This document shows positions 1 through 64,000 of a stretch of 64,000 nucleotides of DNA, piece after piece (the first letter of the stretch is position 1; each line of letters begins with the position of its first letter). Source of the DNA: Paraspadella gotoi (Eukaryota; Animalia; Chaetognatha); the NCBI GenBank assembly GCA_051294375.1, contig CM119270.1, positions 5,278,152 to 5,342,151 on the forward strand, given 5' to 3'. A program made the translations under genes and the position numbers. Under the pieces are notes generated by a model, which searched no databases, was not told the origin of the DNA, and saw only the letters and a program-made list of their open reading frames with translations.

Positions 1-11200
<11,200 letters not shown>

Positions 11201-22738: not shown

Positions 22739-23210
22739 AAACAATTTGTAAAAAAATTATTTGTAAATTGTGCAAAAGAAGAAGAGGGAGAGAGAGAGAG
22801 AATGAGAGAGAGAGAGAGAAAGAGAGAGGAGGGTAAAAGTTTTCCAGCACAGAGGTGAGACAGAATAGTGGTCAGAGGTGAGAACAGGTTGAAGGTAAGG
22901 ACAGATTGAGTGAGTTTTGAAAAGGAAGTGAAACTAATATCCTATAATTTTAGGAACAAGCTATTACAAAAATATATCCAAATAAACAGATTTGCTACAT
23001 AAATCAAATAGTTAATAAGAAGGAATGTTCAGTTTTATATATATGAAAGTTAAAAAATTACTTGTTTCACTATCTTTATTTTTTATTTTTTAGATTTAAA
23101 ATAACTAATATTTATGATTTTATTTGCTTATTAAATATTTTTGTGTTAAATATTTAAATATATTATTTTTTATCTGTTTAGTATAAAAAACAAGAGAGTA
23201 AAACAGCGGT

Positions 23211-26200
23211 TTAAAAGTGGTATACATAAAAGGGTAAAAACTGATCAGCATCTTGAATAATCATCTCTCGCATGTAATTGTCTTGATCTGGTTGCACTGC
23301 TATATGATGATCCTTTATTCTTCCAGGTAAAACGCGAAACAAGATAAGTCCATCGCCATAAGACTGGCTTTTGCTGGGAAACTCTGAAAAATAGCATCCA
23401 TTACCAAAAGCTCTCCCATGTATAGCAGGTCTTCCTGGATCTAAGTTATATTTCAAAATGCTATCAATATTGCTACTGGAAGTGCCATGAAAAGCAAGAA
23501 TTTCTTCTCCACACCCAATTTTTGCAAATTTTTTCTTTTTTTCATTAAACTTTGTTTCAAGTTTTTGGTTAAAAACTACATCAATAGACACAATCTCCGT
23601 TTTATTCCTTGATGGATAAACATTCTCTTTCATAATCATTCGAAGATAGTGAGCCTCTGCTCTAGCAAAATGAAGTTCTAATGGATCACTAGGATTTTTT
23701 GTTCTTTTAGTCAGTATGTTAATTTTAGAAAACGGATATTTGACAAAATCCATATTTGGAATATCCAGAAAGCCCGGAACAGATATGCGAGCATAATGAA
23801 TGATGTACTCGGGATACGCTTGGGCAGGATTAAAGATCACAAATTCATCAAAACGAACACCTCCAGTATTACGCGAATCCCGCGGAGCAAAAACTGAGTC
23901 CATTTTAAGTCTCTTGAGTTTCTCAAAATTGAATTTTTCAGCTCGTAAAATTTTATAACTACGACCTAGTATAACTTTGCATAAAAGTAATTTGTTGGAG
24001 CCTTTAGTGTACAATACTTGTGCACTTTTAGAAGAATCGGTAGCAAAGTAAATCCCTTTGCCATACATGCCATCATTTATTGGTAATCTAAAGCCTTCCA
24101 TAGTTATGCCTTTGACTCCTTCATCAGATGTTCCGTGAAACTTTTCAGCAATATGATCTCCATAACAATCGAGTTTTGCTTTTTCAAACTGCAATTCTAG
24201 TTTAGGGTTTCTAACTTTCTCTATTTTTGTAATAGTTGGATACCAAGAATGCTCTGGTTGTATGAACTTTAACACAAGATCTTCTATTCTTTGATATTCA
24301 GCAGCATTTTCGTCTTTCTTGCTTATATTCTCAATTAACGTGATAGATTTTGTTTTTTCACTTTCAATCTGTTCTATACGCATTTTAGCATGTTCTTTAA
24401 ATACTTTCATTTTTTGTTCACCACAAAAGGAACACTCAACTTTTTCACACATTTCATAACATTTTAGAGTACAAAGATGTGTACATTTTCTCTTTTTTGT
24501 ACAGGGCATTTCACACCTGAACTTAAAATCTGGTTCATGACATATTTTTTTGCTAGAATCTTTATGACAGTCTTCGCATTTTTTGAAAATTATTTTGTTA
24601 CATTTCCAGCTTATTGGTTCTGAACACCTTTTTTTCCTAGGAGATGGGTGCTGACATTCAGGAAATTTATACTCAATAATTTCGTCACAAGATTCGTGGT
24701 TATGCGTTTGTCCACACTTTTTAACGCATTTATGTTTGCAGTTCCTAGTAGCTGTATGTGAGCATGGATGAGTACAATTGATATCTTCTTTCTTTTTAAA
24801 GCATTCTGATTCCATGGTATGACCACAGTTTAAAAGAGTGTTAACAATCATATAACATTTTAAGTCTGACTCAGGCTCAAAGCATTTTTTTTTTGAATCA
24901 TGTTTGCAGTTTATAAAAGTAAACTTTATTACTTCTTCGCAACGAAAATGGCTATGAGGATGCCCACATTTTGCAGTGCATGCATGCAATCCGCAATTCA
25001 TAAGCTTTGAACAAGTGTTGTTACATTTGAGAGTATTTTCATTTACCCAGCATTTTTTTGAACATGAATGACCACAATTTGGAAAAGTGTAATTCACTTT
25101 TATTTCACATTGAAGGCTATTTATATCCTCATAGCAATATCTAACTTTGTAATGTCCACATTTTCCAAATATGTCTGTTACTTCTTGTTTACATGTCTCA
25201 TGTAAATGAGGTGGATTACAGCTTTTTTTGCAATTATGTTTCTGACATTTCATAAGTTGATCGCAACTATATTTACAAAGTAAACTTGGTTTTGAGATGA
25301 ATTTTAACAATTCTTCAGCCGTTTGAACTAAACTTTGAGACTGTTTTAAATGTTTGGGGCATTGAATTGGTAAAGAAGAACTAACACAATTATTATTTTC
25401 CATTTGTTTAATGATATGATACCAACCTTTGTCGCAAGAAAACGTATCTTTGTTTCCAACAAAAAATAATGAACACTTTGCTCTTGACTGAGCCACACAT
25501 CTTCTGTTTTGCTCTTTTAAAAATCCGATTGCACCTTTGTCATTCTTACCAAACTTATTAGACCTGACTAATGAAACAATTACATAATCATTTTCATCCC
25601 CTTGATACATGTCAATTGTTGAAACTTTAGGCAAAGAGCTATTCTCAAAAATTTCTTTCTGTGCAGCTTTTATATTTTTTAGTTTTTCTCGAAGGAGTTT
25701 GACCTGTCCAAGATAGGCTGCTAAAATTGTAATACTTTCTGGTTTACTACCACAGCTTATCAAAAACATGGCTAATGTTGCAGCCATATCAGCTTCTTTA
25801 GGGTTTGTCATGGAGCGACTGAGAGAACTGTCATCATTACTTTTTGATCTACCTGTTTCAGGAAATTCATGTGACCAAAAAAAGTAAGAATTAGTTACAC
25901 AAGCAACTGGTTTATGGTTACTAACTATTTCTAAATTATCTTCCAAAAAAGGATAAATATCTTTAAGCATGCTGGAAAATTCAGGTCGCATTCTATTTTG
26001 TCTTTCAAGTGTCTGGTATTGTATATCTGATGCAATTAATCTTTCCATCATTGAAACATCAAAATGATAGTCTTTTCTCAACTTAAAGGATTCTACTTGG
26101 GGACGCAACTGTTTTTGATCTCCAATTAGTATCAAATGTTCAGTTTCGGAATTTAATGCTGCCAACAGACTTGGTTCTAATATTTCAGCAGCTTCCTCAA

Positions 26201-29200
26201 CTATAACTATTTTTGGAGCAATTTTTCTAATTAATTCGTGATGTATTGAGGCTCCAGTTATGGTCATTCCAACAATTTTTTTATTTTTACAAACTGATGA
26301 TTTATAACTAGTTTCAGCACTACGTTTTTTTTGTATTTTTTGCTCAAGCTCGCACATTCTCACATCTAATTTTTTTTGGACCATTTCGCAAGACTCAAAT
26401 AGTAAAGTAAATATAAATTGAATCTTTTGAATTTCATCAAGACACCCAATATTATCCACTGCCAGCATATTATAATCTGGTTTTAAATCATGAGGAAAAT
26501 CTGAGAGTTTAAACCCCAACTTTTCATTTGGATCTCTGATAAGATTGATTTTGATACTTGATTCTTTTGACAATGTTTCACCATTAATAAGTTGCCTTGA
26601 AGTGTGTAATTCATTTATATAATCTTCATCCAATTCATCAATATTATCTTCTTTATTATGATCAGATTCTTTATTCTCATTTTTTTCTACTTCTGCAGAT
26701 GTAAAATTTAGATACTTTGTTTGCAACTTCTTTAAATCTCTAACTTTCTCCTCTGAAGGTAACCAATTCTGAACAAGATTCTTCCATTTATCAAAAAGAA
26801 ATTGACCATTTGAATTTAATTTATTTTCATGATTAGACAAGAAAAAGTCTTTCAAGCTTGGAATATCTTTTATTATATCACAAAACTTTTTTTTATCTGG
26901 TTTAGATAAGTTTTTCAGCATGAATTCTTTAATTTGAATGTCTGACAAACATTCAAAAAATGTAAGCATTGTCAAGCTTGAGTGTGCCTGAAGTTCATTC
27001 ATTATTGCATTGATATCATCAGATATAAGTGCTATTTCTTCTTGTAATTCTCTAATATCAAAGAATAAATGGCCAGGCATTCGACTTATTTTGAATAAAT
27101 TACACTCCTCTAACCTTGAATCTTGTGATCTCCCACCTATCCTTACAACCGCATTTGCGCCATATAAATCAATCATTTTGACTAAAAATTCATCTAATGC
27201 ATGATTTTTGTAAGTGAGCACTAAAATTGGCAATGGCACTAAACTTTCCGATTCATCTGTAAAATCTGTAGAATTAAGGAGGACCTCTACGATTTTAACT
27301 CCTAGGTAAGTTTTTCCACAACCAGGAGGACCTTGTATAATAGCAAGACGATTGTTGAGAGCATGATCCAGGGCAATTTTTTGACTTTTTTCTAATTGAT
27401 GATAAATTGTAAAATAGTTTAAACTTGTTTGAATTTTTTGCAAAGAGGTTTGATTATTATCCTGTTTTATCATCAAATAATTTGGTGTCGAATTTAGACT
27501 TAGGTTTGTAAAAATAATTTCCTCTGCTAAATCAAATTCTTCCATCTCAAATTGTTGAAATGCTTGTAAAACTGGTTTTAGAGAATTAAAATAAACAGGT
27601 GACTCAACCATTACTGTTTGTCCTCCATACTGCAACAAGGATAATATTGCTTTGCTTTTAGGTAAGCTGTTAAAATCGCACAAGTCTAACAAAATAATTT
27701 TCTTTTGTTTTAATAATTCAGGATCCCTTTCAGCAACAGTTGCCCAAATAGGAGAAGCAAAGTTTTGCTTTGGAGAGAGACAAACCAAATTACCAAACAT
27801 CAATTGGGGAGATTTAGACCAATCTCTTACAGGTTTATCTGGTATAAAATTAACTGCGATTGAAAAGCTAGAATGAGTCAAATAGGTCCCAACCACGAAT
27901 ATTTTCGAATATACATTCATATCTCTCTTATCTAACTTATTACATTTTAACGCCTGAATACCTTTTTGAATTGATTCAAAAGTTTCAGCTCTGAGTAAAC
28001 GGAAATAAGTATCCATATAATCCTCTTCACTTTCAAAAGGTCCATACTTCACTTGACTGAGATGTTTATCCTCTGTTACTAAACTTCCACTGAGCTCTTC
28101 ATTTGTTATGCACATAGGCATCTTGTTCCATTTAGCATCCAAACCATTTTCAAGCTTAGTGTCATTCTCAATAGACATGAGCCAGATATTGAATAATAGC
28201 TTTTGAATTTCTGAAGATGGGTTACTTTCACTAATGCATTTCAGAAAAGGTTGTAAATAATTTTTAATGTTTGGGGCTTCCTGAACCTGGGATATTAAAA
28301 AATCGGAAATAATCTCTATTTTTGAAGCGCCATCTAAAGTTTTAAAATCTGGTCGATTCAAGTCTTTGAAAAATGACATCCACAGTTTTTTTTGATCCTC
28401 ATTAACTGGAGAAAACAAGACTCCACTGAGGACACATTTTGTGGCATCAATGAGTAACTCTTTCTGAAAACGCTTTGCCTTCCTGATGACCACAGTTAAA
28501 CAATGAATATAAGGATAAAAATAGTTATCAAAAGCTGCTGAATTCTTGAAAATCAGTGAAGAAAATAACTTCCACTGAGTTAAATTATTTAATACATCTT
28601 CCAAAGCATCGTGCATCATTGAACCAGACAAGTTTTCAAGTAGACAAGCAAAATAATTTATCAACTCGGAAGAATTCCTAGGTAAATAGAGTAAAATACG
28701 TATTTTTCTAGCCATTGGTCTTTCTTTATCCCTCTCCCCTAAGATATACTCCATTTTATCACCTTCCTTAATTTTTAAAACATAAGAGCTGATTTTGTCC
28801 GCATAAACATAAACATCTTTAGAGTTTCCGTGCTCATAACCTTTGTCCGGTTTAACATAAAAATATTTTTCATTAATATTAGAGCATATAGTTCCTTTTT
28901 GCCACCCATTTTTTGAAAAAATCGTTTGATTATCCTTGATTTCATTGTTTGATAGATTGTTGCTACCAACATAAACAGCTTGAGCTTTTGGTTTTTGTTT
29001 ACTTTCTTCATTTGAGTCCAAATCAAAGGTTACGTTTAATCCAACTGTAATTCCAACCTCTTGGTCGGAATGATTGACTGTTTGATTGATGTGAAAAAAA
29101 ACCAGACGGTTTTCTGTTAAGCTTGCTTCTAAGAGACCAGAAACGTTGTTTGGCATGATACGAATAACGACGCCATTTTTTGTAGATGAGTTTGGAAATT

Positions 29201-29239
29201 TTCTATTATTCTTCATGGCCGGAACTAAAATGACTTTAT
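23211..29239 (-). CDS. ZNFX1: Giant terminal exon of ZNFX1-like helicase-PARP fusion, paralogue A (2x CSD-like, SF1 helicase, NF-X1 zinc fingers, 2x PARP catalytic domain)
   Basis: 2001-aa uninterrupted ORF (ATG 29216, stop 23211). ZNFX1-type motifs: YMDTYFRLLRAE, LMFGNLVCLS, MVESPVYF, Walker A QGPPGCGKT (~27309-27332), TYKNHALDEF, Walker B VEEAAE, GDQKQLRP, SMMERL, QNRMRPE, TIDMYQGDE, RRCVAQSRAK. Cys/His repeats ~24420-25365. PARP motifs FHGT/GKGIYFA/FDEFVIF and FHGT/GNGCYFS/REMII. Splice acceptor (polypyrimidine-AG) at 29240-29241, 23 nt upstream of the ATG. Symbol denotes family, not orthology. Confidence 0.92.
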
Positions 29240-29504
29240 CTGTATAAAAAAAAACAAGAACGGAGATTCAAATTTGTGACTTTGTTATCCCGTGTATTTC
29301 TGTTTTCGACACATACTGCATTGCAATAATTTTTTTTAAATTTTCTATACACTGCGACGCAAAAAAAAGAAGACACTTTTTCACATCGAAAAAACCGTAT
29401 TGGATGGCTGAATTCTACTTAGATATAGAAACATAAAGCAAAGCTTATTAAAAGATAAAGCAATTGGTTTAATTCCCAAAAAATAAATTTATTAATTTGT
29501 TCCG

Positions 29505-30109: not shown

Positions 30110-31180
30110 AAACAAGTTTGAGCAAACAATGTCGGATCTGCCCACGATCATTATCGGTAATTAATTAATTAATAATTAAATTATCCAAGTTAATTAATTT
30201 AGAGAAGAGTTTGAAATGGATTCAACAACGATTTATTTGAAACAATAATAATAACGGACATGTTTCGGCTCTTGTTCAAGCCTTCATCATCAACGCTGAT
30301 GAAGGCTTGAACAAGAGCCAAAACATGTCCGTTATTATTATTGTTTCAAATAAATCGTTGTTGAATCCATTTCAAACTCTTCTTTAAATCTCAACAACAA
30401 CGAAACGAAAAGATTATAATGTCTAAGTTAATTAATTAAATAATTAGGCAATTAATTAATTAGATCCCAAATATTGTTTTTAGGTCTTTTCGTCACTAAC
30501 CATGACAAAAGCAATGACGACGATGAGAATAATGCTGATAACGGTTGACTTGATTGATTGACTTATTAATTAATTACTGATTAATTAATTGACTAATTGA
30601 TTAATTATTTGATTAATTAATACATCCTGCATTTACATTTAATATAAAAGGAAAAAGAAGCATAATCAATTAGTGAAAAAGGTTTTTTGTTTTTTCCATT
30701 AAAATCATTTCCACTCAGACGATTCCATCAAAACTTGATTTCCAGCTTAATCACACACTATCCTACCCACATACAAAATTCAATGTCAATCGCCCCATCC
30801 ACTCATGTGCAATAGGTGTTCAAATAGTGAAAAATATTTTTTTGGTTTTTTTCATTTAAACTCATTTCCACTGGACGATTCCATCGAAACTTCATATACA
30901 GCTCAATCACACACTTCCCTACCCACACACAAAATTTCATTCCAATCCATCCATCCAATCACGAGTAATTGGTGTTTTTTGCTAAGGTGGGACGGACAGA
31001 CAGTCAGACAGACAGACAGACAGACAGATGGACGGACATCATTTTTTTTGCATAATTTATCATAATTCGATGTTCTGACATGATATAAGTGTGTGCCCGA
31101 TAATATTCAGGGGGCGGACCGACGGACCGACAAAGTGAATTAAAGTGTCAGGATCTGCTTATCAGCAGATCCGACTAAAA
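30110..31180 (+). mobile_element. DINE-1/HINE-like non-autonomous Helentron-type element
   Basis: Starts AAACAAGTTTGAGCAAACAATGTCGGATCTG, ends with hairpin GGATCTGCTTATCAGCAGATCCGACTAAAAA (subterminal IR GTCGGATCTG/CAGATCCGAC), internal GACA/GACG microsatellite; related copies elsewhere in the window. Confidence 0.65.
30197..30424. mobile_element. Penelope-like element remnant: 93-bp-arm palindrome carrying minimal hammerhead ribozyme motifs
   Basis: Inverted repeat 30197-30289 / 30297-30389 with two mismatches and a 7-nt spacer; contains AACG-CTGATGA-AGGC...GCC-(G/A)AAAC-ATGTC-CGTT; flanked by direct repeat AAGTTAATTAATT (30187-30199, 30425-30437). Confidence 0.7.
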
Positions 31181-33191: not shown

Positions 33192-33716
33192 CATTCATAC
33201 ACGCATTTGTTTGTTTTATCTACGATGAATGATTCATCGCGTCAATGAATGACTATCATCGCATCAATGAATGATTATCATCATATCAATGAATGATTAT
33301 CATCACATCAATAAATGACTATCATCGCATCAATCATTTGATTATCATCAAATCAGTTATTTTGTTATCATCGCATCAATTATTGGTTATCATCGCATCA
33401 ATATTTGGTTATCATCCCATCAATATTTGGTTATCATCAAAAAAAGGCTCGATCCCTATTGCTTTTAAGATTTTTTAAATAAAAATTATTATGAATTATG
33501 ATAAAGTTTTACAAAAGTGTGCGATCATAGTAAGTTAAAAATTTAGATATGGCTTCTCATCTTGAAATAGCTTTGATATTTTCTCATTACATTTGGATTC
33601 AAGTATTTTTTGTTTGAATTTCCACTTCATTATTATTTACTGCAATATGCAAATGAGATTATAGTACTCATTATAATATCCAAATTAGTATATAGAAATG
33701 CTTTAATCTAATTTAC
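31828..33716 (+). repeat. ~240-bp near-identical direct repeat (31828-32070 and 33475-33716)
   Basis: AAATAAAAATTATTATGAATTATGATAAAG...CTAATTTACA occurs twice with very few differences. Confidence 0.85.
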
Positions 33717-33732
33717 AATAATACAATTTCTT

Positions 33733-33766
<34 letters not shown>

Positions 33767-34012
33767 ACTCATACACGCATTTATTTGTTTTATTTATGAT
33801 GAATGATTCATTGCGTCAATGAATGACTATCATTGCATCAATGAATGACTATCATCGTATCAATGAATAATTATCATCACATCAATGAATGACTATCATC
33901 GCATCAATCATTTGGTTATTATCACATCAATCATTTGGTTATCATCACATCGATCATTTGCTTATCATCGCATCAATCATTTGGTTATCATCGCATCAAT
34001 ATTTGGTTATTA
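33225..34012. repeat. Two arrays of ~22-bp minisatellite (ATCATCGCATCAATGAATGACT)n
   Basis: Arrays at ~33225-33440 and ~33798-34012, each preceded by (CT)n-CATACACGCATTT. Confidence 0.8.
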
Positions 34013-34709: not shown

Positions 34710-34822
34710 CTCTTGTGATATGAGCGTTGCTTTTTTTTAATACGGAAGATTTTGTGGTATGACTTATGTTTTGTTTAGTAAAAATTGAAGGTCCAACAGC
34801 CTCCAACGAAACCGGTTTGTTG
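34710..34822 (-). CDS. Upstream coding exon of paralogue A
   Basis: AG/GT bounded, open frame (NKPVSLEAVGPSIFTKQNISHTTKSSVLKKSNAHITR), phases 2-1 as in paralogue B exon 58119-58243; SHTTKSS resembles SHSRKSS in B. Phase-compatible with the giant exon. Confidence 0.6.
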
Positions 34823-34892: not shown

Positions 34893-35127
34893 CTGGGCTC
34901 AGCGCCTTGCGAGCTGTTTATAGCAAGTGGGAGGGCAGCGTTGAGAGGAGCAGCCGTCGGGGTAATTCTAGTAGATGGATTGGAAGCATCGATTGCAGCA
35001 GAATCAGATCGTGAAGACGGCACCAAAGCGTTGATGGAAATTTGCAATTGTTCATCGTCGCAGTGCGTGGCGTCGACGCCAGGATCGGGCGGTTTTAGTG
35101 GAATAGCATTTCGCCCCATGTATTCGT
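34893..35127 (-). CDS. Upstream coding exon of paralogue A (Pro/Ser/Ala-rich)
   Basis: AG acceptor 35128-35129, donor GTGAGT; open frame EYMGRNAIPLKPPDPG...GAEP; phases 1-2 and PPDP motif shared with paralogue B exon 58316-58505 (IPPEPPDP). Confidence 0.65.
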
Positions 35128-37003: not shown

Positions 37004-38140
37004 AATTGCGACGATCCTTATGCTTTTAGGATTTTTTTAACTTGTATCATTTTTCTGCTTCAAGTAAATGTGACTTAGGTTTTTTTCCATTTAAACTCAT
37101 TTCCACTGGCACAATTCCGTCAAAACACTTTCCTACCCGCTCACAAAATTTCATCTCAATCTATTTTGGGTTAAAATAAGTAAAAAGATTCAAGTAAATG
37201 TGACTCATATTTTTTTCATTTAAACTCATTTCCACTCGTACGTTTCCACCGAAACTTTATATCAAGCATCGATACACATTTTTCTACCACACAAAAAATT
37301 TGAACTCAATCTATCCATCCAATTATGATTAATTAGAGTACTTATTGTAAAATAAGTAAAAAAGATTTTAAGTAAATGCGACTTATGTTTTTTCCACTTA
37401 AACTCATTTCCACTCACACGATTCCGTCGAAACTTTATATCCAGCTTTATCACACACTTTCCTACCCACACACAAAATTTTCATTTCAATCCAACCAGCC
37501 AATCACGAGTTATTGGAGCTTTTTGCTAAGGTGGGACGGATGGACGGATTGATTGACTGATTAATTAATTATTGATTAATTAATTGACTAATTGATTAAT
37601 TAACTGATTAATTATTTGACTTATTAATACTTCCTGCATATACATTTAATATAAAAGGAAAAAGAAGCATAATCAATTAGTGAAACAGGTTTTTTGTTTT
37701 TTTCCATTTAAACTCATTTCCACTCAAAAGATTCCATCGAAACTTGGTTTCCTGTTCAATCACACACTTTTTCTACTCCACATACAAAATTCCAGGTCAA
37801 TCGATAATTAAGTGGTAACAAGCTATCTTGGTCAATCTTGCATAATTTAATCAACTTGCATAATTTGGTCAACTGACATAATTTGGTTAACTGACATAAT
37901 TTGGTCTACTGACATAATTTGGTCAACTGACATAATTTGGTTCAACTGACATAATTGATCAATTAAGAATAATTTGGTCAACCGGCAATAATTTGGTTAA
38001 CTGGCATAATTTTATCAACTAGCCTAATTTGGTCAACAGGCATAATTTGGTCAACTTGCAAAACTTGATTAACTTGCAGAATTTGGTCAACTGGCATAAT
38101 TTGGTCAATTAGCATAATTTGGTCAATCAAATCAATCAAT

Positions 38141-38181
<41 letters not shown>

Positions 38182-38974
38182 GAGAGAGAGAGAGAGAAAC
38201 TTTAAAAAATTCAAATAAATGTGTCTTTTGGTTTTCTAATTTGAACTCTTTTCCACTCCTACGATTCCACCAAAAAATTTTTATCCAGCTTTATCACATA
38301 CTTTCCTACCCACACACAAAATTCAATTTCGATTTATCTATCCAATTTTTAATAAACAAAATAATTTTGAATAAATTTAAGTAAAAATACTTCAAGTAAA
38401 TATGACTTTTGTTTTTTCCATTTTAACTCTTTTCCACTCGCACGATTCCATCGAAACTTTATATCCGGCTCAATCACACACTTTCCTACCATCATACAAA
38501 ATTTAAAGTCAATTGCACTATCCACTCATGAGCAATTGGCGTTCAATAGTGAAATATATTTTTTTGTTTTTTCCATTTAAACCAATTTCCACTCGCACGA
38601 TTCCCTCGAAAACTTCATATCCATCTCAATCACACAGTTTCCTACCCACACACAAAATTTCATACCAATCCATCCATCCAATCACGGGTAATTGGAGTTT
38701 TTTTGCTAAGGTGGGACGGGACGGACGGACGGACGGACGGACGGACGGACGGACGGACGGACGGACGGAACGGACGGACGGAAGGACGGACGGACGGACG
38801 GACGGACGGACGGACAGACGGACGGACGGACATCGTTTTTTTTGCATAATTTATCATAATTCGATGTTCTGACATGATATAAGTGTGTGCCCGACAATAT
38901 TGAGGGGCGGACCGACGGACCGAAAAAGTGAGTTATAGAGTCGGGATCTGCTGATAAGCAGATCCGACTAAAAA
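36059..38974 (+). mobile_element. Expanded or composite HINE-like element(s) with internal tandem units
   Basis: Same 5' end (AAACAAGTTTGAGCAAACAATGTCGGATC) and 3' hairpin; repeated AAACTCATTTCCACTC...CACACTTTCCTACCCAC units, (GGAC)n at ~38715-38830. Confidence 0.6.
37828..38125. repeat. ~18-bp minisatellite (GGTCAACTGACATAATTT)n
   Basis: About 16 degenerate tandem copies visible. Confidence 0.85.
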
Positions 38975-40449: not shown

Positions 40450-40984
40450 ACGAGCAAAAAAAGAGAAAAAACTGGTTTGAGGAATAGAAAAAAAGGACAC
40501 TCCTAAACTTAACTCATGTTGTATTCCTAAGCTTCACTCATGTTGTATTCCTGGATTTATAATGATATTTTAGGTAAATATGGTCATCAAAAGAAAAACA
40601 ATTGGTGCAAATTTTGTTATAATTAATTCAGGACAATAATATTGAGTTAGACAAATTTTTTTCACAAATTTGGTTACAATTTGTAAAGGACTGTAGTAGT
40701 TAATTAGAGAATATTTCCGAATCTGTAGCGATTTGCAATCAAATAAGACAGGCAGCAAGACAGACAAAGGAAAAAATAATAGGCAACCAGGGAGAGAAAG
40801 AGAGAGACAAACAACAAGCTCAAAGTCGGAAGTCGAAAAACTAACTAATAACAGTTGCACTGACAGACAAAGGGACAGATAGAAAAATATCGATATGCTG
40901 GCTTATTTTTATTATTCAATTATTCAAAAACATAATAAAATCTTTGATGAAAGGAAAAAGAAAATGAGAGAGAGAGATAGAGAG

Positions 40985-41157
40985 AGAGAGAGACCTGCAG
41001 TTACCAAGGTGCCCTGTCATCTGACACGCAATGTCTGTCTCCCTGTTTTTTTTAGCTCTCCATGGAATCTTGGTATTTTCTTTTTTTTTTCCACATTCGC
41101 TAATGGGAAAAAAATTTACTAACTCACCAAATTATTTTTAATATTTTATTTTTGAAA

Positions 41158-41211
<54 letters not shown>

Positions 41212-44200
41212 AAAGGGAGCTATGATGCTCCGGCGCCGAAAATCCGATAGGTTGATTCCGGAACTCGACGACTCCAAACTAGAATCGGCGCCAATTTTAA
41301 GAACAACAACAACGACGACGCCCGAAACTCCAACCGACGAGACTTCCAGCGCCGGAAATCGGCGCGAAACCAAAACCGGCGTCAAATCGAAGATTCGGCG
41401 TTTTTTACTACAATTTCATCGAGGATCGACTTTGCGGGAGGACGACGACGACAACGTCGACAAGGACAAAGTCGACAAGGACAACGTCGACAAGGAAAAC
41501 GACAAAAAAGGTAAAATAGATCGACGAATGACGAAGAACGAAAAATTACGAATTTCGAATCTCATCGTTTCCAACTTTATGTAAAAGAAAAAACAACCAA
41601 ACATAAGCAAACAAATTTTCAAAAAACATAGAAGTAAACGAAAAAAAAAATCAACGAAACTCACTCAACATAAGTAAGAGGAAATCGAAAGAGAGCAGAG
41701 ACAGAGACTAGGAATCTGAATCTCGACATCTAGCGAATCATACGTCTCTCTCTCACTCTCTCTTCCGCGTTCCATTCTCCTTCGTGACCCTATCTCGTTA
41801 CTTTCTCCCATCCCCGAACCCCTCCAAACGAGCAAAATCCAAAATTCCCGAGTCCGATATAATTCCAGCAGATCGAAGGTTTGCCTCAAAGAGAGAAGAG
41901 AGTAAATGTTTGGTCTTCCACATGTCCCCCATCTGTACAACAATCCGTTCTTGTCATTGTCAATACCATCTCTAATCCTCTCACTGAAGCTCCCCACTGT
42001 CCTCCCTCTGCCGTCGTCATCAAGCCCTGCATTCCATCTGTATCCCACCCATCTTCTCTTTACCCAATCCCTCTTCCTCTCTACTAAAGTTACGGAGTCC
42101 ATCTATTATCAATCATCTTTTCGATTCATAAAAAGATTCGTTACTATATTACAGGCGTCAACTGACCTTCCGACGATACGCTGCAATGAAATCATTATTT
42201 GAAAGATAAATGGCATCTAATAATATTCTGAAGTTCAATTATCAAACAAACTAATACTGTCTCTTCGCTTTTTCCCTTCCCGTTTCCTATCTTCAGGCTT
42301 CTCCCCCTTGTTCTTCCTGCTTGCCTTCCCTGCTTCCTGCCTACTTCATATTGTTCCCCTCATTTGTCTCCCTAACTATTCCCCTGCCTTCCCTTTTTCA
42401 CTTCCCCTTTCCCTTCCCAATCGGGCTTCAGGCCATTTTGTTCCAGAACTAAAAAACAACAACAAAAAAAAAAAAAAAAAAGAAATAAATTGTCCTCATA
42501 AAACTGGAGACCGAAAGAATAAACCGAGTCCAGGAAAACATATCAAGAACGAAGGAAATAAAAAACTTTTAAAAATCAAAAACAAGAAAAGAAAATAAAA
42601 GAAACTGATAAAAAAAATTAATCGTTTTTAAAAATCGCTATCGTATTCAGACGAGAAAATCGATTCGCGTCAAAACAAATGACGTCTATTTCAAAAAAGT
42701 GTGAAGGCCTCAATGGGCGCCCAAATTAAGACCGCCGCCCCAAAAAAAAAAGAATAGTGCGATACCAATGCGCCGTAGACGTAATATCGGCGCGTCACGG
42801 CGTTCCTGCGGTCAGCGGGTAAGTGGCGTTCAACCTTCCTAACCATCCCCTCTCCCCAACGCGCCAATGCAGATCTCCATCGACTACAACAAATCCTCGC
42901 TCTAGAGTACTTCCACCGTTAAGAGCAACTCGTCGAAGATTTTGTCAAGAAACTCAACGACGACGACGACACGACGGACACACGTTGCCGGAAATCGGCC
43001 CCGCGTACCCCGCTGTCCCGGCTCACGGCCGGCTGCGCGGCTACCGAAAATCCGGAATCGGGCTGCCGATATCTGCCGCCACGGCGAGAATCGATTAGTT
43101 GGAGTGGCGGCGGATAATTGTAAAATATGAGAAAAAAAAAAGATTTAAATACGAGTTATTTGGGGTTAGGCTTCTTCTTAAACCGGCTGACAAAATTTGT
43201 GTTTCATTTAAAAATTCAGAGTGACAGTAATCTGAATTCATCTAATTGTTATAATTGTTATTTCTTCACTAATGCTAACCTTACCCAATATATACAGCTC
43301 TTTTATTCTAGATTATGAGCTGTTATACGTTTGTTCTCTTCGTCGACATTTACAATTACTAATCGAATTCTCACCCCCACGGGCTTCGTAATATTAACCG
43401 TTTCTTCTTCTCGATCGATTCGAGCTTCTCTAAAGAAGCACGACGACCACGAGGCCGACGACGATTCGACGACGAGTCTACGAGCGAAAGAGAAGACGAC
43501 GACGACGACGGACCCTTACCCGCGCGAATTCTAAAGAAAGCGCGGCCCGTGTCTCGCCCAACTGCCGTTCTCTCAGGCGCCCGGAGTTGAGGGCGGCGTT
43601 GAAAGCGGGACTCGGGGTCCAAATTGGCCGCAGAGGTAAGCACGTGGCGGGCCCGGTCGGAATCTCTTCGCCGATGAGTCTCGTTGCAAAAGGGCAGGGT
43701 CAGAGGCGCCGCAGGCAGACCAACGTCACGACGGTGGCGGCTCAAGGATCCCGCCCTCACGCAGAAGACGAAAAGAGAGAGCGGCGACGTTTTCCTCCGA
43801 CGCCAGCGACGACGCCAGAGCCGGCGCCTTTTTGACGGAATCCGGCGCGGCGGCGGGATTTCGGCGAAGCGGAGCGTCGAATATGCAGCGGACGTAGGCG
43901 GCTGGCTCGCGGCGTCCGTCGTCGGTCCAGCGTTGTGAGCTTGTGGTTTTCGAGAACATTGCTTGAAGGTTTAAAATGTCAATATAGAAATTTAACATTT
44001 TTTTAAAATTCTTTAAACACCAAAAATAAGTATTTAACAAATCAGAAGAACAGTAACAGTTGTTTTAAAGATTGGAAAACAAGTAAAAACTTAAACTATT
44101 TAAATTCAACCAATAACAAAGAACACTAATGTTTAAAATAAATCATGAATATAAAATCAATTGAACATGATTCATAAAAAACGATGAAATATTAACGTTA

Positions 44201-44554
44201 CATAGACTAACTGGAACCGAACCAAAGCCCGAGGTTTTTTTATATATTCTTATACCGGACAAGGCTAGAAATGATGCAATATTGTTAATATGTAAGTTTC
44301 AAAAAATACCGACTATAAAATAAGAAAATATTAACCAAATCTTCGGAAAATTTCCCCTTCTTGGAAGATTTTCGCCATGAAAATTTTCCCAATCTGCACT
44401 CCCGGTTGAAAACCTAGAATTCCGATCGTTATAGCTCCCTCTTTTACTTTACTTTAAAATAAAAATTTCACCAAATGACTAATTCACTTATACCCATGAT
44501 CGTATCATATTCAAAATAAACCTAAAAATTGTAAAGAAAAGATTGAGAGCCTTC
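40985..44554 (+). repeat. ~3.6 kb block duplicated at 60270-64000 (copy 1)
   Basis: Colinear similarity along the whole length, differing mostly by 1-3 nt indels. Confidence 0.9.
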
Positions 44555-50844: not shown

Positions 50845-53800
50845 TTAAAAATGGTACACATAGCAGGGTAAAAACTGGTCTGGATTTTTAATAATCATTT
50901 CTCTCATATAATTATTAGGATCTGGTTGAACTGCTTTGTGGTCAATGTCTACTTTTCCTGGTAAAACACGAAACAAGATGAGGCCATTTCCATAGGATTG
51001 ACTTTTGCTGGGAAATTCTGAAAAATAACTTCCCTGACCATGAATTCTTCCATGTTTCATAGGTCTGTTTGGATCTAAATTATGTTTTAAAATGCTATCA
51101 ATATTACAACTGTCAGTGCCATGAAAAGCGAGAATTTCTTCATCATACCCATGTCTTGACAATTGTTTCTTCTTTGCTTCAAATTTTACTTCAAGGCTTT
51201 GATTAAAAACTACATCAATAGATTTAATTTCATCTTTACCCGAATAGGACAATTGCGATTTATCTTTTAGCATCATTCTTAAATAATGAGCCTCGGCCTT
51301 AGCAAAATGAATTTCCATGGGATCTGAGGGGTTTTTGCTTCTTTTGGTCTTGACATTAGTTTTGGAATATTGTTTATTCATTGCTAGGTTCATTGCTTGG
51401 ATAGCTTTATATCCCGGAACAGAAGTGCATGAATAATGAATGATATATTCTGGATAAGCTTGGGCTGGATTAAAGATCACGAATTCATCAAATCGAACAC
51501 CTCCTGTACCACGAGTATCACGAGGAGCAAAAACGGAATCTCTCTTTAATTTTTTAAGCTTGTTGAAATCAAATTTTTCAGCTCCCGATATTTTATGTGT
51601 TCTGCCAAGCAGCACCTTACATAAAAGTAGTTTATTAGATCCTTTTGTATACATTTCCTGAGCACTTTTTGAAGAATCAGTGGCAAAATAAATTCCTTTG
51701 CCATACATACCTTCATTTGATGGTAATCTAAATCCTTCATTAGTTATGCCTGTTACTCCTTCATTAGATGTTCCATGAAACTTTTCCGCAATATCATCAC
51801 CAAAACAATTCAGTTTTGCCTTTTCAAACTGGAGTTCTAAATCAGAATTCCTAACTTTTTTTATTGCTGTGATTGTGGGATGCCAATTATGACTTGGCTG
51901 TATAAACTTTAAAACAAGATCTTTGATTCTTTGATATTCGGCCGAGGTTTCATCATCCTCTCTAATGTCTTCAGTTGAAACAATTTTTTCTTTTTTCTTT
52001 ATATCTTGTTTCAGCTTCTCAATTCGTTTATTTGCTTGATCTTTAAAAAGTTTTAAAGAACGTTCTCTTTCTTTCTCACACAGTTGACAACTGTCATTGG
52101 AATCACACATTTCTGAACATTTTCGAGTACAAGGATGTCCACATTGCATGGCTTTCATGCATGGCATTGCACAAAAGAACATAGTGTCTGGCTGATGACA
52201 TTTTTTCTTTGCAGAATTTTTTTGACAAATTTTACACACTTGGGTTAATAACATATCACACTTCCAAATAACTGGTTCTGAACACTTTTTTCTTTTAGGG
52301 GATGGATGCTGACAGTCAGAGAATTTATATGAAATTAGTTGCTCACAATTTTCATGGTTATGAATATTTCCACATTTATTGTGACAAACATGCTTACAGG
52401 GAAATATATATGAGCATGGATGAATGCAATTAATATCCTCCTCATTTTTAAAGCACTCTGCTTCCATAGTATGACTACACTTTAAAGTAGTATTTTTTTT
52501 AGTATTACATTTTAAATCTGTTTCTTTCTCATTGCATTTTCTTTTTGATTCATGTCCACAATTTGAAAATAGAAATTTTACAGTTTCTGTGCAAAGGTCA
52601 TGGCCATGTGGATACCCACACTTATTAGTACATGCATGCAACTCACAATCCATTAACTTTGAACAGGTTTTGTTGCATTTAAGACTGCCTTCATTAACAA
52701 AACATTTTTTAGAACAGGAGTGCTCACAGCTTGAAAAAACATATTTCAATTTTACTTCACATCTGAGGTTATCTATATTTTCATAACAATACCGCATTAT
52801 TTCATGTCCGCAACCTGGAAACTTATCTGTAACCTTTTCTGCACATAATTCATGTGAATGATGTGGATAACAAGTTTTTTTACATTTATGATTCTGGCAC
52901 TTCATCAGCTTATCACAACTATACTTACAGAGTAAATTTGGATTCGCAATTACTTTCATTAATTCATCTGAGGTTTGAATCAAGCTTTGAGATTGCTCCA
53001 AATGTTTTGGACACTGAATGGGAAGGGAAGAACTAACACAATTGTTTTCGGCCATAGTTTTAATTATACTGTACCATCCTTTGTCATCAGAAAATGTATC
53101 TTTATTTCCAACAAAAAATAATGAACATTTTGCACGTGATTGAGCAACACATCTTCGATTCTGCTCTTTTAAAAATCCAATAATACCTTTTTCATTTTTT
53201 CCTGATTTATTTGATCTGACTAAAGATACAATAATATAATCATTTTCATCCCCTTGATACATATCAATTGTGGAAACGCGTGGCAAAGAACCATTTTTAA
53301 AAATATTTTTCATTGTAACAGCTTTAGTTTTGAGCTTTTCACGAAGTAATTTAACCTGTCCTAGATAAGCTGCTAAGATTGTAATTTTTTCTGGTTCATT
53401 ACCGCAACCTACTAGAAATAAAGCTAACGTTGCTGCCATCTCCGCTTCTTGAGGGTTGGTTACTGATCTACTGAATGAACTGTCATTATTTCTCATTCTT
53501 CCAGCTTCTGGAAACTCATGTGACCAGAAAAAATAAGAGCTACTGATGCAAGTAGCCGGTATATGACTATTTACTACTTCTAAATTATCCTCCAAGAAGG
53601 GGTAAATACTTTTTAAAAGACTGGAAAATTCAGGTCTCATTCTGTTTTGTTTTTCAAGGGCCTGATAAGGCATATTAGATTCAATCAATCTTTCCATCAT
53701 TGAAACATCAAAATGATACTCTTTCCTTAATTTAAAGGATTCAACCTGAGGACGGAGCTGTTTTTGATCACCAATAAGGATCAAATGATCTGTTTTAGAA

Positions 53801-56800
53801 TTCAATGCAGCTAAAAGACTAGGTTCTAATATCTCAGCAGCTTCCTCGACTATTATTATTTTTGGAGCAATTTTTCGAATTAGTTCATTATGAATTGAAG
53901 CTCCAGTTATAGTCATGCCAATAACTTTTTTTTCCTTACACACCCCGGATTTATAATTTATTTCTAAACTTCTTTTTTTTTCTATTTTTTGATCGAGCTG
54001 ACACATTCTTGCTTCCAATTTCTTTTGTAAAGTTTCACATGAGTCAAACAGTAAGGTAAATATAAACTGAATTCTTTGAATTTCGTCAAGACTCCAAATG
54101 TTTTCAACTGAAAGCATATTGTAGTCTGGCTTTAAATCAGGAGGAAAATCTGAAAGGCTAAACAAAGAATTTTTAATCGGATCTGCAATAAAATTTATTG
54201 TGCCGGATATTTTCATAGTTCTATCATTAAGAAGTTGTCTTGAAGTTTGTAATTCATTAATATAATCTTCATCCAATTCATCAGTATTTTCTTCTACTTC
54301 TTCTGAATCATTATTTTCAGTCATTGGATCAGGAGATGTATCAGAAATAAATTTAGTCTGCAATTGTTTCAGCTCTTTAACTCTTTTTTGAGAAGGAAAC
54401 CACTGCTGCAGAAGAAGATTCCAAGTATTAATTAGAAATCTATTTGTATTCATATTTTTTAAAAAATAGTCTTTCAAATCGTTATAATGATTTTCAATAA
54501 ATAAAAGCTCATTATAAAACCTTTTTTTATCCATTTTTGATAATTTTTTCAGAAAAAAATTTTTTATCTGATCAACCGACAAATACTCAAAAAATTTGTC
54601 CATTGTCAGGCTAGATTGAGAATGAATTTCATCCATAAGCAAATTAATATCATTAGATATTAATTTTATTTCCTCTTGCAATTCTCTAATATCAGAATAC
54701 AAATGAGTTGGCATACGACTTATTTTAAATAAACTACACTCATCTAACCTTTTTTCTTGGGATCTTCCACCTATCCTCACAACCTCACTAGTGCCAAATA
54801 AATCTACCATTTTTATTAAAAATTCATCCAATGCATGGTTTTTATATGTAAGCACTAGAATTGGAACTGGCACCAAACTTTCTAGATTCTCTGTATATAT
54901 ATCAGAATTCAAAAGCAGCTCAACAATTTTTACTCCTAAATAAGTTTTTCCACTGCCTGGTGGACCTTGAATAATGGCAAGACGGTTCTTAAGAAGAAAA
55001 TCCAGTGCAACCTTTTGACTTTTTTCCAATTTAGAATACAAATTATGATAATTTGAACTTGTTTGAATTTTTGACAAAAGACTTTGATTATCATCCAGTG
55101 TAATCATTAGGTAGTTCGGAATTGAATTTGGGATGTGTTTGGTAAAAATTATTTCATTAGCTAAATCAAACTCATCCATCTCAAATCGTTTTACTGCTTC
55201 CAAAACTGGTTTTAAGGAATTAAAATACACTGGTGATTCAACCATAATAGTTTGTCCTCCATATTGCAACATTGATAATATAGCTTGGCTTTTGGGTAGG
55301 CTGTTAAAATCTGACAACTCCAACATTATTACTTGTTTTTTCTTTAATATCTCTGGATCCCTTTCAGCCACGGTTGCCCAGATTGGATTGGCAAAATCTT
55401 GTTTTGGGGAGAGACAAACTAGATTACCAAACATTAATTGAGATGATTTAGACCAATCTCTCACAGGCTTGTCTGGAAGAAAAGTGACTGCAATGGACAA
55501 ACCAGAATTATTCATGTATGTACCTACTACAAATACTTTCCAGTAAACATTCATATCTCGCTTATCCAATTTATGACATTTAAAATCCTGAATACCTTTC
55601 TGAATTGATTCAAAAGTTTCAGTTCTAAGCAAACGAAAGTAGGTATCCATATAATCCTCCTCGCTTTCAAAAGGTCCATATTTTACTTGTGAAAGGTGTT
55701 TATCCTCTGAAACTAAACTTCCATTCAACTCTTCATTTGTGATGCATATTGGCATTTGGTTCCAGTTAACGTCCAGGCTTAGATCATACTTTTTATCAGT
55801 TTGTATGATTAAAAGGCAGACATTAAAAAGAAGATTCTGGGTCTCTGTTGAAGGAAAACTTTTACACACACATTTTAATATAGGTTGAAGATAATCTTTA
55901 ATGGAAGGCACTTCTTGAGCAAGACAGATTAAAAAATCTGAAATAATTTCTATTCTCGAGGATCCATTCAAAATGTTGAAATCTGGTTCACTCAAATCTT
56001 TAAAATACGACAGCCATTGTTTTTCCGGTTCTCCATCAGCCGGAGAAAACAGAACTCCTTTCATAACACATTTCATGACATCTTCTAGCTGCTCTTTATG
56101 AAAACGCTTAGCTTTTCGAATGATCACTGTTAAACAATGAATATATGGATAAAAATAGTTATCAAAAGCCCCAGAATTCTCAAAACTGAGTGAAGAAAAA
56201 AAATTCCATTGAGCTAAATTATTTAATATATCTTCCAAAACATTATGCATATTAGTACTTGACAAGTGTTCAATTAGACATGCAAAATAATTGATCAATT
56301 CAGACGAATTTCTTGAAAGGTAAAATAAAATACGGACCTTTCGGGCCATTGGTCTTTCAGTATCTCTATCACTTAAAATGTATTCCATTTTGTCACCAGC
56401 CTGTATTTTTAAAACATACAAACTTATTTTATCCGCATGTACAAAAACATCTTTGTTGTTTCCATGTTCATATCCATCATCGGGCTTAACGTATAAAAAC
56501 TTTTCATTTATATTGGGGCATGTAGTTCCTTTTCGCCACCCCTTTTTTGGGAGTATTACCATAGTATTACTTTGTTCATTGTTTACCTCATTATAACAGC
56601 CAACATAAATAGCAACAGCTTTTGGTTTTTCCTTATTTTTTCCATTTGGCTCTAAATCAAATTCTACACAAGATCCAACAGTTATGCGAACCTCTTGAAT
56701 TGAATAGTTGGAAATTTGATTTAAATGAAAGAATACAAGACGATTTTCCATTAAATTTGCATCAATAAGACCCGACACATTGTTATCCATAATGCGTTTA

Positions 56801-56873
56801 ACGTGGCCCTTTTTTGTTGTTGCGTTTGGACTTTTACCATTGTTTTTCATTGCAGGAACAATAATAGCACAAT
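50845..56873 (-). CDS. ZNFX1: Giant terminal exon of ZNFX1-like helicase-PARP fusion, paralogue B
   Basis: Same domain order as paralogue A and colinear throughout: CSD-like DVFVH, Walker A QGPPGSGKT (~54943-54966), VEEAAE, GDQKQLRP, TIDMYQGDE, RRCVAQSRAK, Cys/His array, PARP FHGT/GKGIYFA/FDEFVIF and FHGT/GQGSYFS/REMII. Acceptor AG at 56874-56875, 23 nt before internal ATG 56850. Confidence 0.92.
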
Positions 56874-56939
56874 CTAAATAACAAATAAAGAATGTATAAT
56901 AATTATATGTTTTATATCCATTTCTTATTTTAGACTTAC

Positions 56940-60251: not shown

Positions 60252-60269
60252 CGAGAAGAGAGAGAGAGA

Positions 60270-60449
60270 GAAGACAGGCCTACGGTTACCAAGGCTGCCC
60301 TGTCATTTGTAACGCAATGCCTGTCTCCCTTTATTTTCCGCTTCATGGGAACTTGGTTTTTTTTCTTGTTTTTTTTTTATTAACCACATTTGCTATAGGA
60401 AGAAAAGTTTACTAACTCACCAAATTATTGTTAATATTCTTATTATTTT

Positions 60450-60520
<71 letters not shown>

Positions 60521-63500: not shown

Positions 63501-64000
63501 ATAGTATTAACAAAATCAGAAACAGTAACAGTGTAAAAGATTGGAAAATGATAAACAATAGACACTAATGTTTAAAATGAAATCAATGATAAAATTTTTA
63601 TGAACTTGATTCATAAGAAACTATGAAATATAAGTTCATAGGGACTAAGCTCTGACGAACAAAGCCCGAGGTGTTTTTAAATATTCTTAAATAGCGGACA
63701 AGGTAGATGATATGGCAATATTGTTTAATAGTTAAGTTCAATAAAAAATCCGACCTTAAATATAGAAATAATAACCAAAATCTCGGCAAAATTTTCCCTT
63801 CTTTGGAAGATTTTCGCCATGAGAAGATTTTTCCAACTGACTCCCGGTTGAAAACTCTTAGAATTTCCGATTCGTTAGTTCCTCTTTTACTTTACTTTAA
63901 TAAAAATTTCACCAAAGATTAGGACTATTCCCATTTACCATGATCGTATCAACTAGTCAAAATAACCTAATAAATGTAAAGAAAAATTTTGAGAGCCTTC
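60270..64000 (+). repeat. ~3.7 kb block duplicated at 40985-44554 (copy 2, runs off window end)
   Basis: Shared anchors such as AGAAAGGGAGCTATGATGCTCCGGCGCCGAAA, CGAATTTCGAATCTCATCGTTTCCAACTTTATGTAA and TTGAGAGCCTTC. Confidence 0.9.
62189..63464 (+). CDS. Probable two-exon gene of unknown function, frameshifted in this assembly (more damaged copy at ~42768-43960)
   Basis: GC-rich, ATG in AAAATGGCG context, open frame to GTAAG donor at ~62537, acceptor ~62777, second GC-rich segment with GILKK...ISFADEVVVQEV; single-base indels break the frame. Confidence 0.45.

Follow-up and report, generated by a model that had tools for sequence, protein, structure and literature searches.

A ZNFX1-type helicase with twin PARP domains in place of the ubiquitin-ligase tail in the chaetognath Paraspadella gotoi: a candidate RNA-activated ADP-ribosylating defence protein

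The stretch of DNA analysed here, 64,000 nucleotides of the chaetognath Paraspadella gotoi (GenBank assembly GCA_051294375.1, contig CM119270.1, positions 5,278,152 to 5,342,151 of the forward strand; hereafter the window), carries on its minus strand two tandem genes, each encoding a long protein in which a ZNFX1-type helicase is followed by two PARP domains. In gene 1, the frame from 23211 to 29267 is open from stop to stop over 2018 codons (protein P0001), and the main exon, at 23211..29239, encodes residues 10-2018 and the stop codon. Position 29239 is the first base past a splice acceptor (a pyrimidine run and CAG), so that 23211-29239 represents a single exon of about 6 kb. An earlier reading, made from the letters alone (the sequence-only reading), had placed one polypeptide in this interval; the continuous frame bears this out, with the refinement that the interval is a large exon and that the protein probably starts upstream, in two predicted coding exons. 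The first of these (34893..35119, minus strand, from a GT-AG scan) begins with an ATG at 35119 and encodes a Ser/Pro/Ala/Thr-rich, probably disordered segment, and the second (34710..34822, minus strand, 113 nt) contributes one base needed by the main exon. The resulting three-exon model has GT-AG introns and yields 2122 amino acids without stops.

Contigs covering the main exon came from a single public run (X1), which contains 98% of the sampled window words, is possibly derived from the same sample as the window, and whose RNA type is a guess, no run listed as containing these words being on record as RNA. Two X1 contigs, 23133-26067 and 26040-29241, overlap and jointly cover 23133-29241. 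One runs from the second helicase lobe to the stop codon, and the other carries 536 extra letters at odds with the flanking DNA, its match extending exactly two bases beyond the acceptor. Predicted exon 2 ends in GAG, in agreement with this two-base overrun, and the contig with the extra letters fits a spliced transcript. X1 differs from the window at six positions of the open reading frame (ORF), namely 23346, 23410, 23411, 26379, 26715 and 28710, four of the differences being silent; the two adjacent ones turn residue 1953, at the acceptor-Met position of the second PARP domain, from Ala into Phe (an allele or an assembly difference).

All exons and domains described below for the two genes lie on the minus strand. 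P0001 starts with two cold-shock-like barrels (28968..29180, residues ~30-100, and 28689..28904, residues ~122-193), which are seen in the AlphaFold2 model of the protein start together with a helical domain and the 1B barrel (predicted local distance difference test, pLDDT, 88). In the fold search, these barrels match the cold-shock domains (CSDs) of Unr (E 3e-6) and CspA (TM 0.76 on target), the human ZNFX1 structure 9q9z also being matched; a family profile additionally recognises the second barrel, and Pfam CSD matches the gene 2 protein (P0002) in two stretches (E 1e-7). The two CSD-like domains of the sequence-only reading thus stand as modelled folds and through the paralogue, and fail as a Pfam match, since Pfam CSD found none on P0001. 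The helical region that had also been proposed corresponds to an all-helical domain of the model (28146..28673, residues ~199-374), which occupies the place of the ZNFX1 ARM domain; its fold search gave weak Aquarius matches only (E 4e-5, root-mean-square deviation, rmsd, ~20 A), and the Atlas search gave no usable match for the P0001 N-terminus.

Next come the ZNFX1 domain, a 1B beta-barrel insertion (27600..27929, residues 447-556; Pfam PF25396, E 8e-17, 61.7 bits against a cut-off of 27; also aligned with 9q9z), and a UPF1-like superfamily 1 (SF1) helicase core (25449..27398, residues 624-1273; Pfam AAA_11 at 624-1060 and AAA_12 at 1070-1273), with Walker A at 646 (K652-T653), Walker B E1024-E1025, motif VI R1262 and a long 1C insertion. 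The Walker B sequence, VEEAAE at 1023, has the deviant EEAA form described as a ZNFX1 hallmark (bioRxiv 10.1101/2025.10.14.682297). The best solved relative of P0001 is human ZNFX1 (PDB 9q9z, E 3e-95) and, together with the Pfam matches, this confirms the complete SF1 helicase with ZNFX1 motifs that had been recognised earlier. An acidic segment of the 1C insertion (26595..26651, residues 873-891, ending in R891) is predicted to be an RNA-mimicking plug helix, aligned with human residues 828-836 through P0239, a protein of the canonical type with an RZ ligase tail (RZ-type). The NFX1-type zinc-finger stalk (24423..25361, residues 1303-1615) is assigned from its alignment with the ZNFX1 fingers of 9q9z, the finger region holding 47 Cys and 23 His in 387 residues. 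Of the NF-X1-like fingers proposed from the sequence, what holds is this alignment and a terminal finger shared with RZ-type proteins, and what does not is the Pfam NF-X1 model, which had no match in the P0001 finger region. The short helical linker that had been noticed is a charged helix (24318..24422) found both in the model and in the tail comparison; it leads from the last finger to the first PARP domain and is the swap point discussed below.

The tail itself consists of PARP-A (23793..24302, residues 1656-1825; H1711, Y1740, E1808, M1734, K1747, Y1753) and PARP-B (23214..23720, residues ~1850-2018; H1927, Y1959, Y1970, E2001, with a short loop before E2001). Pfam recognises PARP in two stretches of P0001 (E 1e-39), tankyrases come out on top in single-domain searches with PARP-A (E 1.5e-10) and PARP-B (E 1.4e-6), and the AlphaFold2 model of the pair has two ADP-ribosyltransferase (ART) folds (pLDDT 92). 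Both the twin PARP-fold domains of the sequence-only reading and its suggestion that the C-terminus should model as ART folds are thereby upheld. PARP-A superposes on tankyrase-2 with Z 23.3 and an rmsd of 1.9 A over 177 residues (33% identity); the fold-search rows are dominated by PARP-A, and the assignment of PARP-B comes from Pfam, from its tankyrase sequence match and from a profile-profile match to PARP-A (99.8% probability). The Atlas search with the tail retrieved generic PARP clusters only. A complex prediction for PARP-A and PARP-B, run without alignments, scored 0.00 and is uninformative on contact either way.

In PARP1 numbering, H862, Y896 and E988 make up the catalytic triad and M890 and K903 belong to the acceptor site, and the set of H, Y, E, Met and Lys marks chain-forming PARPs (PMC6486540, PMC10711553). 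Among 122 sequences, in which the PARP-A residues were located from their distance to the triad Tyr and from the tankyrase alignment, PARP-A keeps H in 116, Y in 119, E in 117, the M890-like Met in 116 and the K903-like Lys in 118. In PARP-B of the same sequences, H and Y are each kept in 121, the Glu site is occupied by M (64), E (22), I (14), Q (10) or A (7), the acceptor-site Met is absent, and Lys is present in 2. By its residues, PARP-A is thus of the predicted chain-forming kind (Glu, Met and Lys), and PARP-B usually looks like a mono-transferase, without that set. Unusually, both window proteins have Glu and Lys in PARP-B, P0001 has Ala at its acceptor-Met site, and their PARP-B loop has 20 residues versus mostly 28-50. 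A strict-pattern tally of complete triads in 243 long proteins, which miscalled clear H-Y-E members such as P0165, was left unused.

Gene 2 (main exon 50845..56873, within the ORF 50845-57201) is a tandem paralogue with the same architecture, its splice acceptor, and hence its intron, lying at the same codon and phase as in gene 1. P0002 is 69% identical to P0001 over 2025 positions, and the Pfam matches to the ZNFX1 domain, to AAA_11 and AAA_12 and to PARP in two stretches are common to the two proteins. Taken over the whole length, the ratio of nonsynonymous to synonymous rates (dN/dS) between the paralogues is 0.16; it is lower in PARP-A (0.11) and higher in PARP-B (0.24), with dS ~1.2, and both PARP domains are under purifying selection between them. 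Candidate upstream exons of gene 2 on the same strand (58316-58505, 58119-58243, 57374-57504 and 56940-57026) are Ser/Pro-rich, the first having a PPDP motif as in predicted exon 1 of gene 1, and both first exons are followed by an intron of 70-72 nt. A block located 5' of each paralogue (40966-44554 and 60253-64000), with no long ORF inside, is 82% identical over ~3.9 kb, versus 74% DNA identity for the genes, and represents either a younger repeat or gene conversion. The window also contains a 156-bp repeat unit at 30666-30976 and 38407-38699, and minisatellites (22-23 bp and 18 bp) at 33225-34010 and 37828-38126, these repeats lying partly within the large gene 1 intron and partly upstream of gene 1. 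An Rfam search of the window gave no match.

The helicase half can be compared residue by residue with the human protein. In human ZNFX1, the acidic plug helix 828-836 is autoinhibitory and is displaced by RNA, and RNA boosts both the ATPase and the ligase (bioRxiv 10.1101/2025.10.14.682297; PMC13710534; bioRxiv 10.1101/2025.09.05.674436), making it an RNA-stimulated enzyme that traps viral RNA (bioRxiv 10.1101/2025.09.05.674436). In the alignment with 9q9z (chain numbering offset by 87 from the human one, as derived from K625, E1006 and R1223), human K625/T626/Y627 correspond to K652/T653/Y654 of P0001, E1006/E1007 to E1024/E1025, R1074 to R1092, R1223 to R1262, Y450 to F491, Y1043 to F1061, F1210/R1216 to F1249/R1255 and the finger residues C1264/C1292 to C1303/C1335. 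Nucleotide, RNA-stacking, RNA-binding and patient-mutated finger positions are thus identical or aromatic-for-aromatic, H1073 excepted. The plug aligns (via P0239) with residues 883-891 of P0001, the preceding run having 7 acidic residues in 10, and the plug Arg is kept in 41/46 PARP-type and 12/12 RZ-type rows. The 1C insertion segment has 319 residues in P0001 versus 256-424 in 12 RZ-type rows. Among PARP-bearing proteins longer than 1650 residues, Walker A is kept in 158/163 and Walker B also in 158/163. Judged by these correspondences, the sensing half of P0001 looks intact.

How this helicase relates to canonical ZNFX1 was analysed on a set made up of the 150 best helicase matches from 1.84 billion representatives and 16 additional rows, of which 155 entered a FastTree analysis (11 were dropped for short helicase cover); the trees are unrooted and the sampling is biased toward the query. 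All PARP-bearing rows (73/73), together with 19 short or unassigned ones, fall on one side of a long branch, the other side holding 63 rows that include all those with a recognised RZ finger (13/13). With 69 hand-picked rows, IQ-TREE recovers the same branch with a support (SH-like approximate likelihood-ratio test, SH-aLRT) of 99 and one PARP-tailed exception on the RZ side (P0354); eleven rows, including all nine named plant rows, group at 95, and the nearest named relatives of the window helicase are octocoral and copepod proteins. P0354 (EukProt) has a SAM domain, helicase, fingers and both PARP domains, its helicase sitting on a long branch; a second tail acquisition, an early branch and a long-branch artefact are the alternatives.

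The tails part ways at a common point. A terminal zinc finger is shared by 12/17 PARP-type and 13/14 RZ-type proteins examined; past it, PARP types continue through a charged helix into PARP-A within 25-48 residues, and RZ types continue into the ligase module. A profile of the RZ tail matches 0/73 PARP-bearing rows, 13/13 RZ rows, 26/37 other long tails and 1/32 short tails; neither window protein matched it, nor did either match Pfam PF20173 (RZ finger). Since the tails split after a shared finger and the RZ profile misses the PARP rows, the two outputs are alternatives on one chassis, which agrees with the swap of the C-terminal output that the sequence-only reading had put forward. At the other end of the protein, which holds the cold-shock domains and the helical domain in the ARM position, the family profile matches 71/110 long PARP-type proteins outside its training set and 0/13 RZ-type proteins.

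The same reading had regarded the architecture as a possible oddity with perhaps some unstudied database entries. Such entries do exist, and in numbers that do not fit an oddity: a search with the PARP pair returned 268 proteins of 1109-3532 residues among 3184 candidates, and AAA_12 is present alongside PARP in 119/120 of the matches listed, which answers the architecture search that had been suggested. The range of the family is read here from the named matches, most matches being without an organism name. Among animals these are Dendronephthya, Xenia, Paramuricea, Rhopilema, Macrostomum, Limulus, Tachypleus, Tigriopus, Artemia, Hydractinia (XP_057299698.1), Paralvinella, Symsagittifera, Convolutriloba (with weak PARP domains) and Nematostella (a fragment), covering corals, jellyfish, flatworms, horseshoe crabs, a copepod, an annelid and an acoel; among plants (a moss, ferns and conifers) they are Taxus, Cryptomeria, Adiantum, Ceratodon and a 'Gb_' entry, which we take to be Ginkgo. 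Database labels are 'NFX1-type zinc finger protein 1-like', 'PARP' or hypothetical. From this distribution of sequences, PARP-tailed ZNFX1 is an old subfamily of animals and land plants, probably present in unicellular eukaryotes too. The PARP tail occurs in 63 metagenome loci, in many of them as one long ORF on gene-poor or eukaryote-like contigs. Some metagenome contigs are gene-dense and GC-rich, with eukaryote-type neighbours (MYND-RING-Sel1 on L037, Nse4 on L056), which suggest unicellular eukaryote hosts. Searches with short exact patterns found no relative in viral contigs (a weak test, in part blind to helicase-only matches) or in prokaryote genomes (also weak, as a helicase-only match could not be confirmed), and a narrow search of phage records found none either.

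Local duplication is recurrent in the family, with the window pair, the metagenome loci L040 and L049, and several copies in Xenia and Dendronephthya; the two metagenome cases (L040:3-1181 + 1745-8759 and L049:2-4402 + 5853-10253) comprise one tandem pair and one tail-to-tail pair of the same gene. Among the plant members, P0165, P0329-P0336 and P0340 form one group, in which the gymnosperms show a duplication; in the moss, PARP-A of one copy is decayed and a second copy is without a PARP match. In Artemia franciscana, five proteins (P0118, P0119, P0121, P0445 and P0447) carry the PARP tail behind dsRNA-binding (dsrm) or zinc-finger domains, the helicase being decayed or absent, and on these predicted domains the tail is an output module rewired to another RNA sensor. 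The Nematostella vectensis entry P0362 (LOC5506123, 635 aa) begins just past the helicase end, with fingers and both PARP domains, and is possibly a split gene model; its species is used as a model for immunity in cnidarians. Precomputed Pfam matches for P0109, P0459 and P0474 give a ubiquitin-like domain in a full-length member and PARP-A behind PF10283 or SAM in short proteins.

A literature search at the level of titles and abstract starts, with a metazoan ZNFX1 survey, most subscription journals and supplements outside its coverage, found no paper describing a ZNFX1-PARP fusion. Word searches of the available text of PMC13710534 and of the Squair preprint (supplements and preprint alignments lying outside) gave no mention of PARP, the words 'helicase' and 'NFX' are absent from the PARP survey PMC4245714, and the available portions of PMC9334734, PMC6208414, PMC8195603, PMC12687431 and PMC10057411 contain no helicase-PARP fusion. 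PARP-tailed ZNFX1 is apparently undescribed as a subfamily.

With somewhat more confidence than doubt, we read the window protein as an ADP-ribosylating defence factor switched on by RNA, which would do with ADP-ribose what ZNFX1 does with ubiquitin. It has the domain order and the swap point after the last finger described above, and its catalytic residues are retained in the helicase and in the PARP domains; that RNA gates the activity and that the protein serves in immunity we infer by analogy with human ZNFX1. As in the human protein, the acidic plug would keep the RNA groove closed; once long RNA and ATP push the plug out, several copies would load and cluster on the RNA, the cold-shock domains probably helping, and these events would turn on the two PARP domains as a two-part writer. 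To judge from the active-site residues, PARP-B would attach the first ADP-ribose and PARP-A would lengthen the chains on the protein itself, on its neighbours or on RNA, and these chains would trap or mark the RNA, as the ubiquitin chains of human ZNFX1 do.

Several points weigh against this interpretation. The PARP domains sit beyond a stalk of ~310 residues, no gating element for them was identified, and the enzyme activity of the window protein is itself a prediction. Human H1073 is Asn in P0001, and over nine aligned positions the window plug helix has 1 acidic residue where the human helix has 3. In human ZNFX1, E2~Ub discharge rises just two-fold with RNA, in single turnover (bioRxiv 10.1101/2025.09.05.674436). 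As to chain formation, the H-Y-E triad is no guarantee of chains, as PARP3 and PARP4 illustrate (PMC6486540, PMC10711553), and the 122 sequences were retrieved with the PARP region, so that the set is biased toward conservation. PARP-A is degenerate in a minority of members (4/122 with Y-E-T/S; moss P0336, P0172, annelid P0133, acoel P0320), so chain formation would not be universal, and the Glu and Lys in PARP-B of the window proteins mean that a fixed split between primer and extender may not apply there.

A bolder form of the defence reading, which we entertain tentatively and regard as rather doubtful, would make the family an ancient single-chain RNA sensor-polymerase of animals, seedless and naked-seed plants and unicellular eukaryotes: foreign RNA would unlock the helicase, PARP-B would prime, and PARP-A would build poly(ADP-ribose), either directly on RNA or on the protein in its clustered state, so that the virus would be caught in a condensate. 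If true, this would parallel, with ADP-ribose, the ubiquitination of RNA by ZNFX1, and viral macrodomains would have a natural target in it outside vertebrates.

Among the competing explanations, the one that survives best, unlikely as we find it, is a helicase of a small-RNA pathway, comparable to Hrr1 or C. elegans ZNFX-1; its PARP tail would then serve to mark transcripts under silencing or to organise germ granules, and not to respond to infection. Hrr1 is the nearest sequence relative of the ZNFX1 1C insertion and C. elegans ZNFX1 acts in RNA interference (RNAi; bioRxiv 10.1101/2025.10.14.682297), and such a role would suit the strong purifying selection (dN/dS 0.16), the plant copies that track plant relationships and the cold-shock domains, which are appropriate for general RNA handling; the multiple copies per genome, the tandem pairs and the repeated decay of one PARP domain, however, fit conflict genes better. 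Neighbour ORFs of ten loci include no RNAi gene, which says little in eukaryotes. An RNA-triggered NAD+ sink, in which the two ART domains would deplete NAD+ and kill or stall the infected cell, the ADP-ribose product being incidental, we consider improbable: each chain has two NAD-binding sites, both conserved, ARTs are listed as cell-suicide effectors (PMC8195603) and the helicase resembles antiphage MkoA (E 4e-48, though this is a general SF1 likeness), but PARP-A keeps the acceptor Met and Lys, which serve chain growth and not hydrolysis. About as improbable is a function in routine RNA metabolism (stress granules, turnover) with a PARP activity that is constitutive or controlled by a partner. 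The failure to identify a gating element for the PARP domains, the transcript-like X1 contig obtained without a known immune stimulus (the RNA type of X1 being guessed) and the short PARP-module proteins without helicase, many of which may be fragments, speak for such a function; against it stand the conserved autoinhibitory plug and a patchy spread, in that the named matches (most matches being nameless) include no vertebrate, insect, nematode, fungus or flowering plant. That the fusion stems from faulty assembly or gene calling, or that the gene is dead, is suggested at most by six N gaps in the window (841 bases, outside the repeat regions mentioned above). This explanation is refuted by the unbroken frame, the second copy with the same layout, the dN/dS of 0.16, the X1 contig that reaches from the second helicase lobe to the stop codon and the 119/120 listed relatives with AAA_12 and PARP, and it retains a negligible probability.

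ZNFX1 has recently been shown to turn RNA binding into ubiquitin chains, and the PARP-tailed subfamily couples the same sensor to a different chemistry, that of ADP-ribose. If the PARP tail is gated by RNA, as the favoured defence reading supposes, this would be direct RNA-activated ADP-ribosylation by a single protein, which is proposed but unsettled for vertebrate antiviral PARPs (PMC10057411), and a candidate antiviral ADP-ribose writer in invertebrates and non-flowering plants. Members are present in tractable models (Hydractinia, Macrostomum, Tigriopus and Ceratodon), and the human structure already defines the mutants for a test.

Comparison with known systems places the window protein among, and apart from, several families. 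Its helicase core matches the PADLOC models of MkoA of Mokosh (E 4e-48), a prokaryotic helicase gene with a PLD-nuclease partner; the match is confined to the helicase and the window gene is spliced and eukaryotic, on which grounds a prokaryotic gene was rejected. A recent lineage-specific fusion was likewise rejected, as was a pseudogene, given the uninterrupted frame and the dN/dS of 0.16. The catalytic domains of tankyrase-1/2 and PARP1/2 are the closest solved folds and sequences to PARP-A, sharing H-Y-E and the acceptor Met and Lys, but the window protein has tandem catalytic domains fused to a helicase and, in Pfam, no ankyrin, SAM, WGR, BRCT or regulatory helical domain; an orthologue of tankyrase or PARP1 was rejected on the lack of ankyrin/SAM or of zinc finger/BRCT/WGR/regulatory domains in Pfam. 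Hrr1 and C. elegans ZNFX-1 are not known to carry PARP domains. S. pombe Hrr1 and C. elegans ZNFX-1 belong to the same helicase family as ZNFX1 and have its 1C insertion (bioRxiv 10.1101/2025.10.14.682297). PARP10, 12, 13/ZAP and 14 also join RNA-binding modules to a C-terminal ART, with a proposed RNA-regulated activity, but they use CCCH, RRM, KH or macrodomains and one ART domain (PMC10057411). Human ZNFX1 shares with the window protein the 1B insertion, the EEAA Walker B, the long 1C insertion with its acidic plug, the finger stalk and a two-part modifying enzyme at the C-terminal end; the window protein differs in its N-terminal cold-shock domains, its separate helicase branch and its two PARP domains instead of the RING-like/Miz or RZ module. 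Without a ubiquitin-ligase tail, the window proteins thus represent a sister subfamily of ZNFX1 and not canonical members of it.

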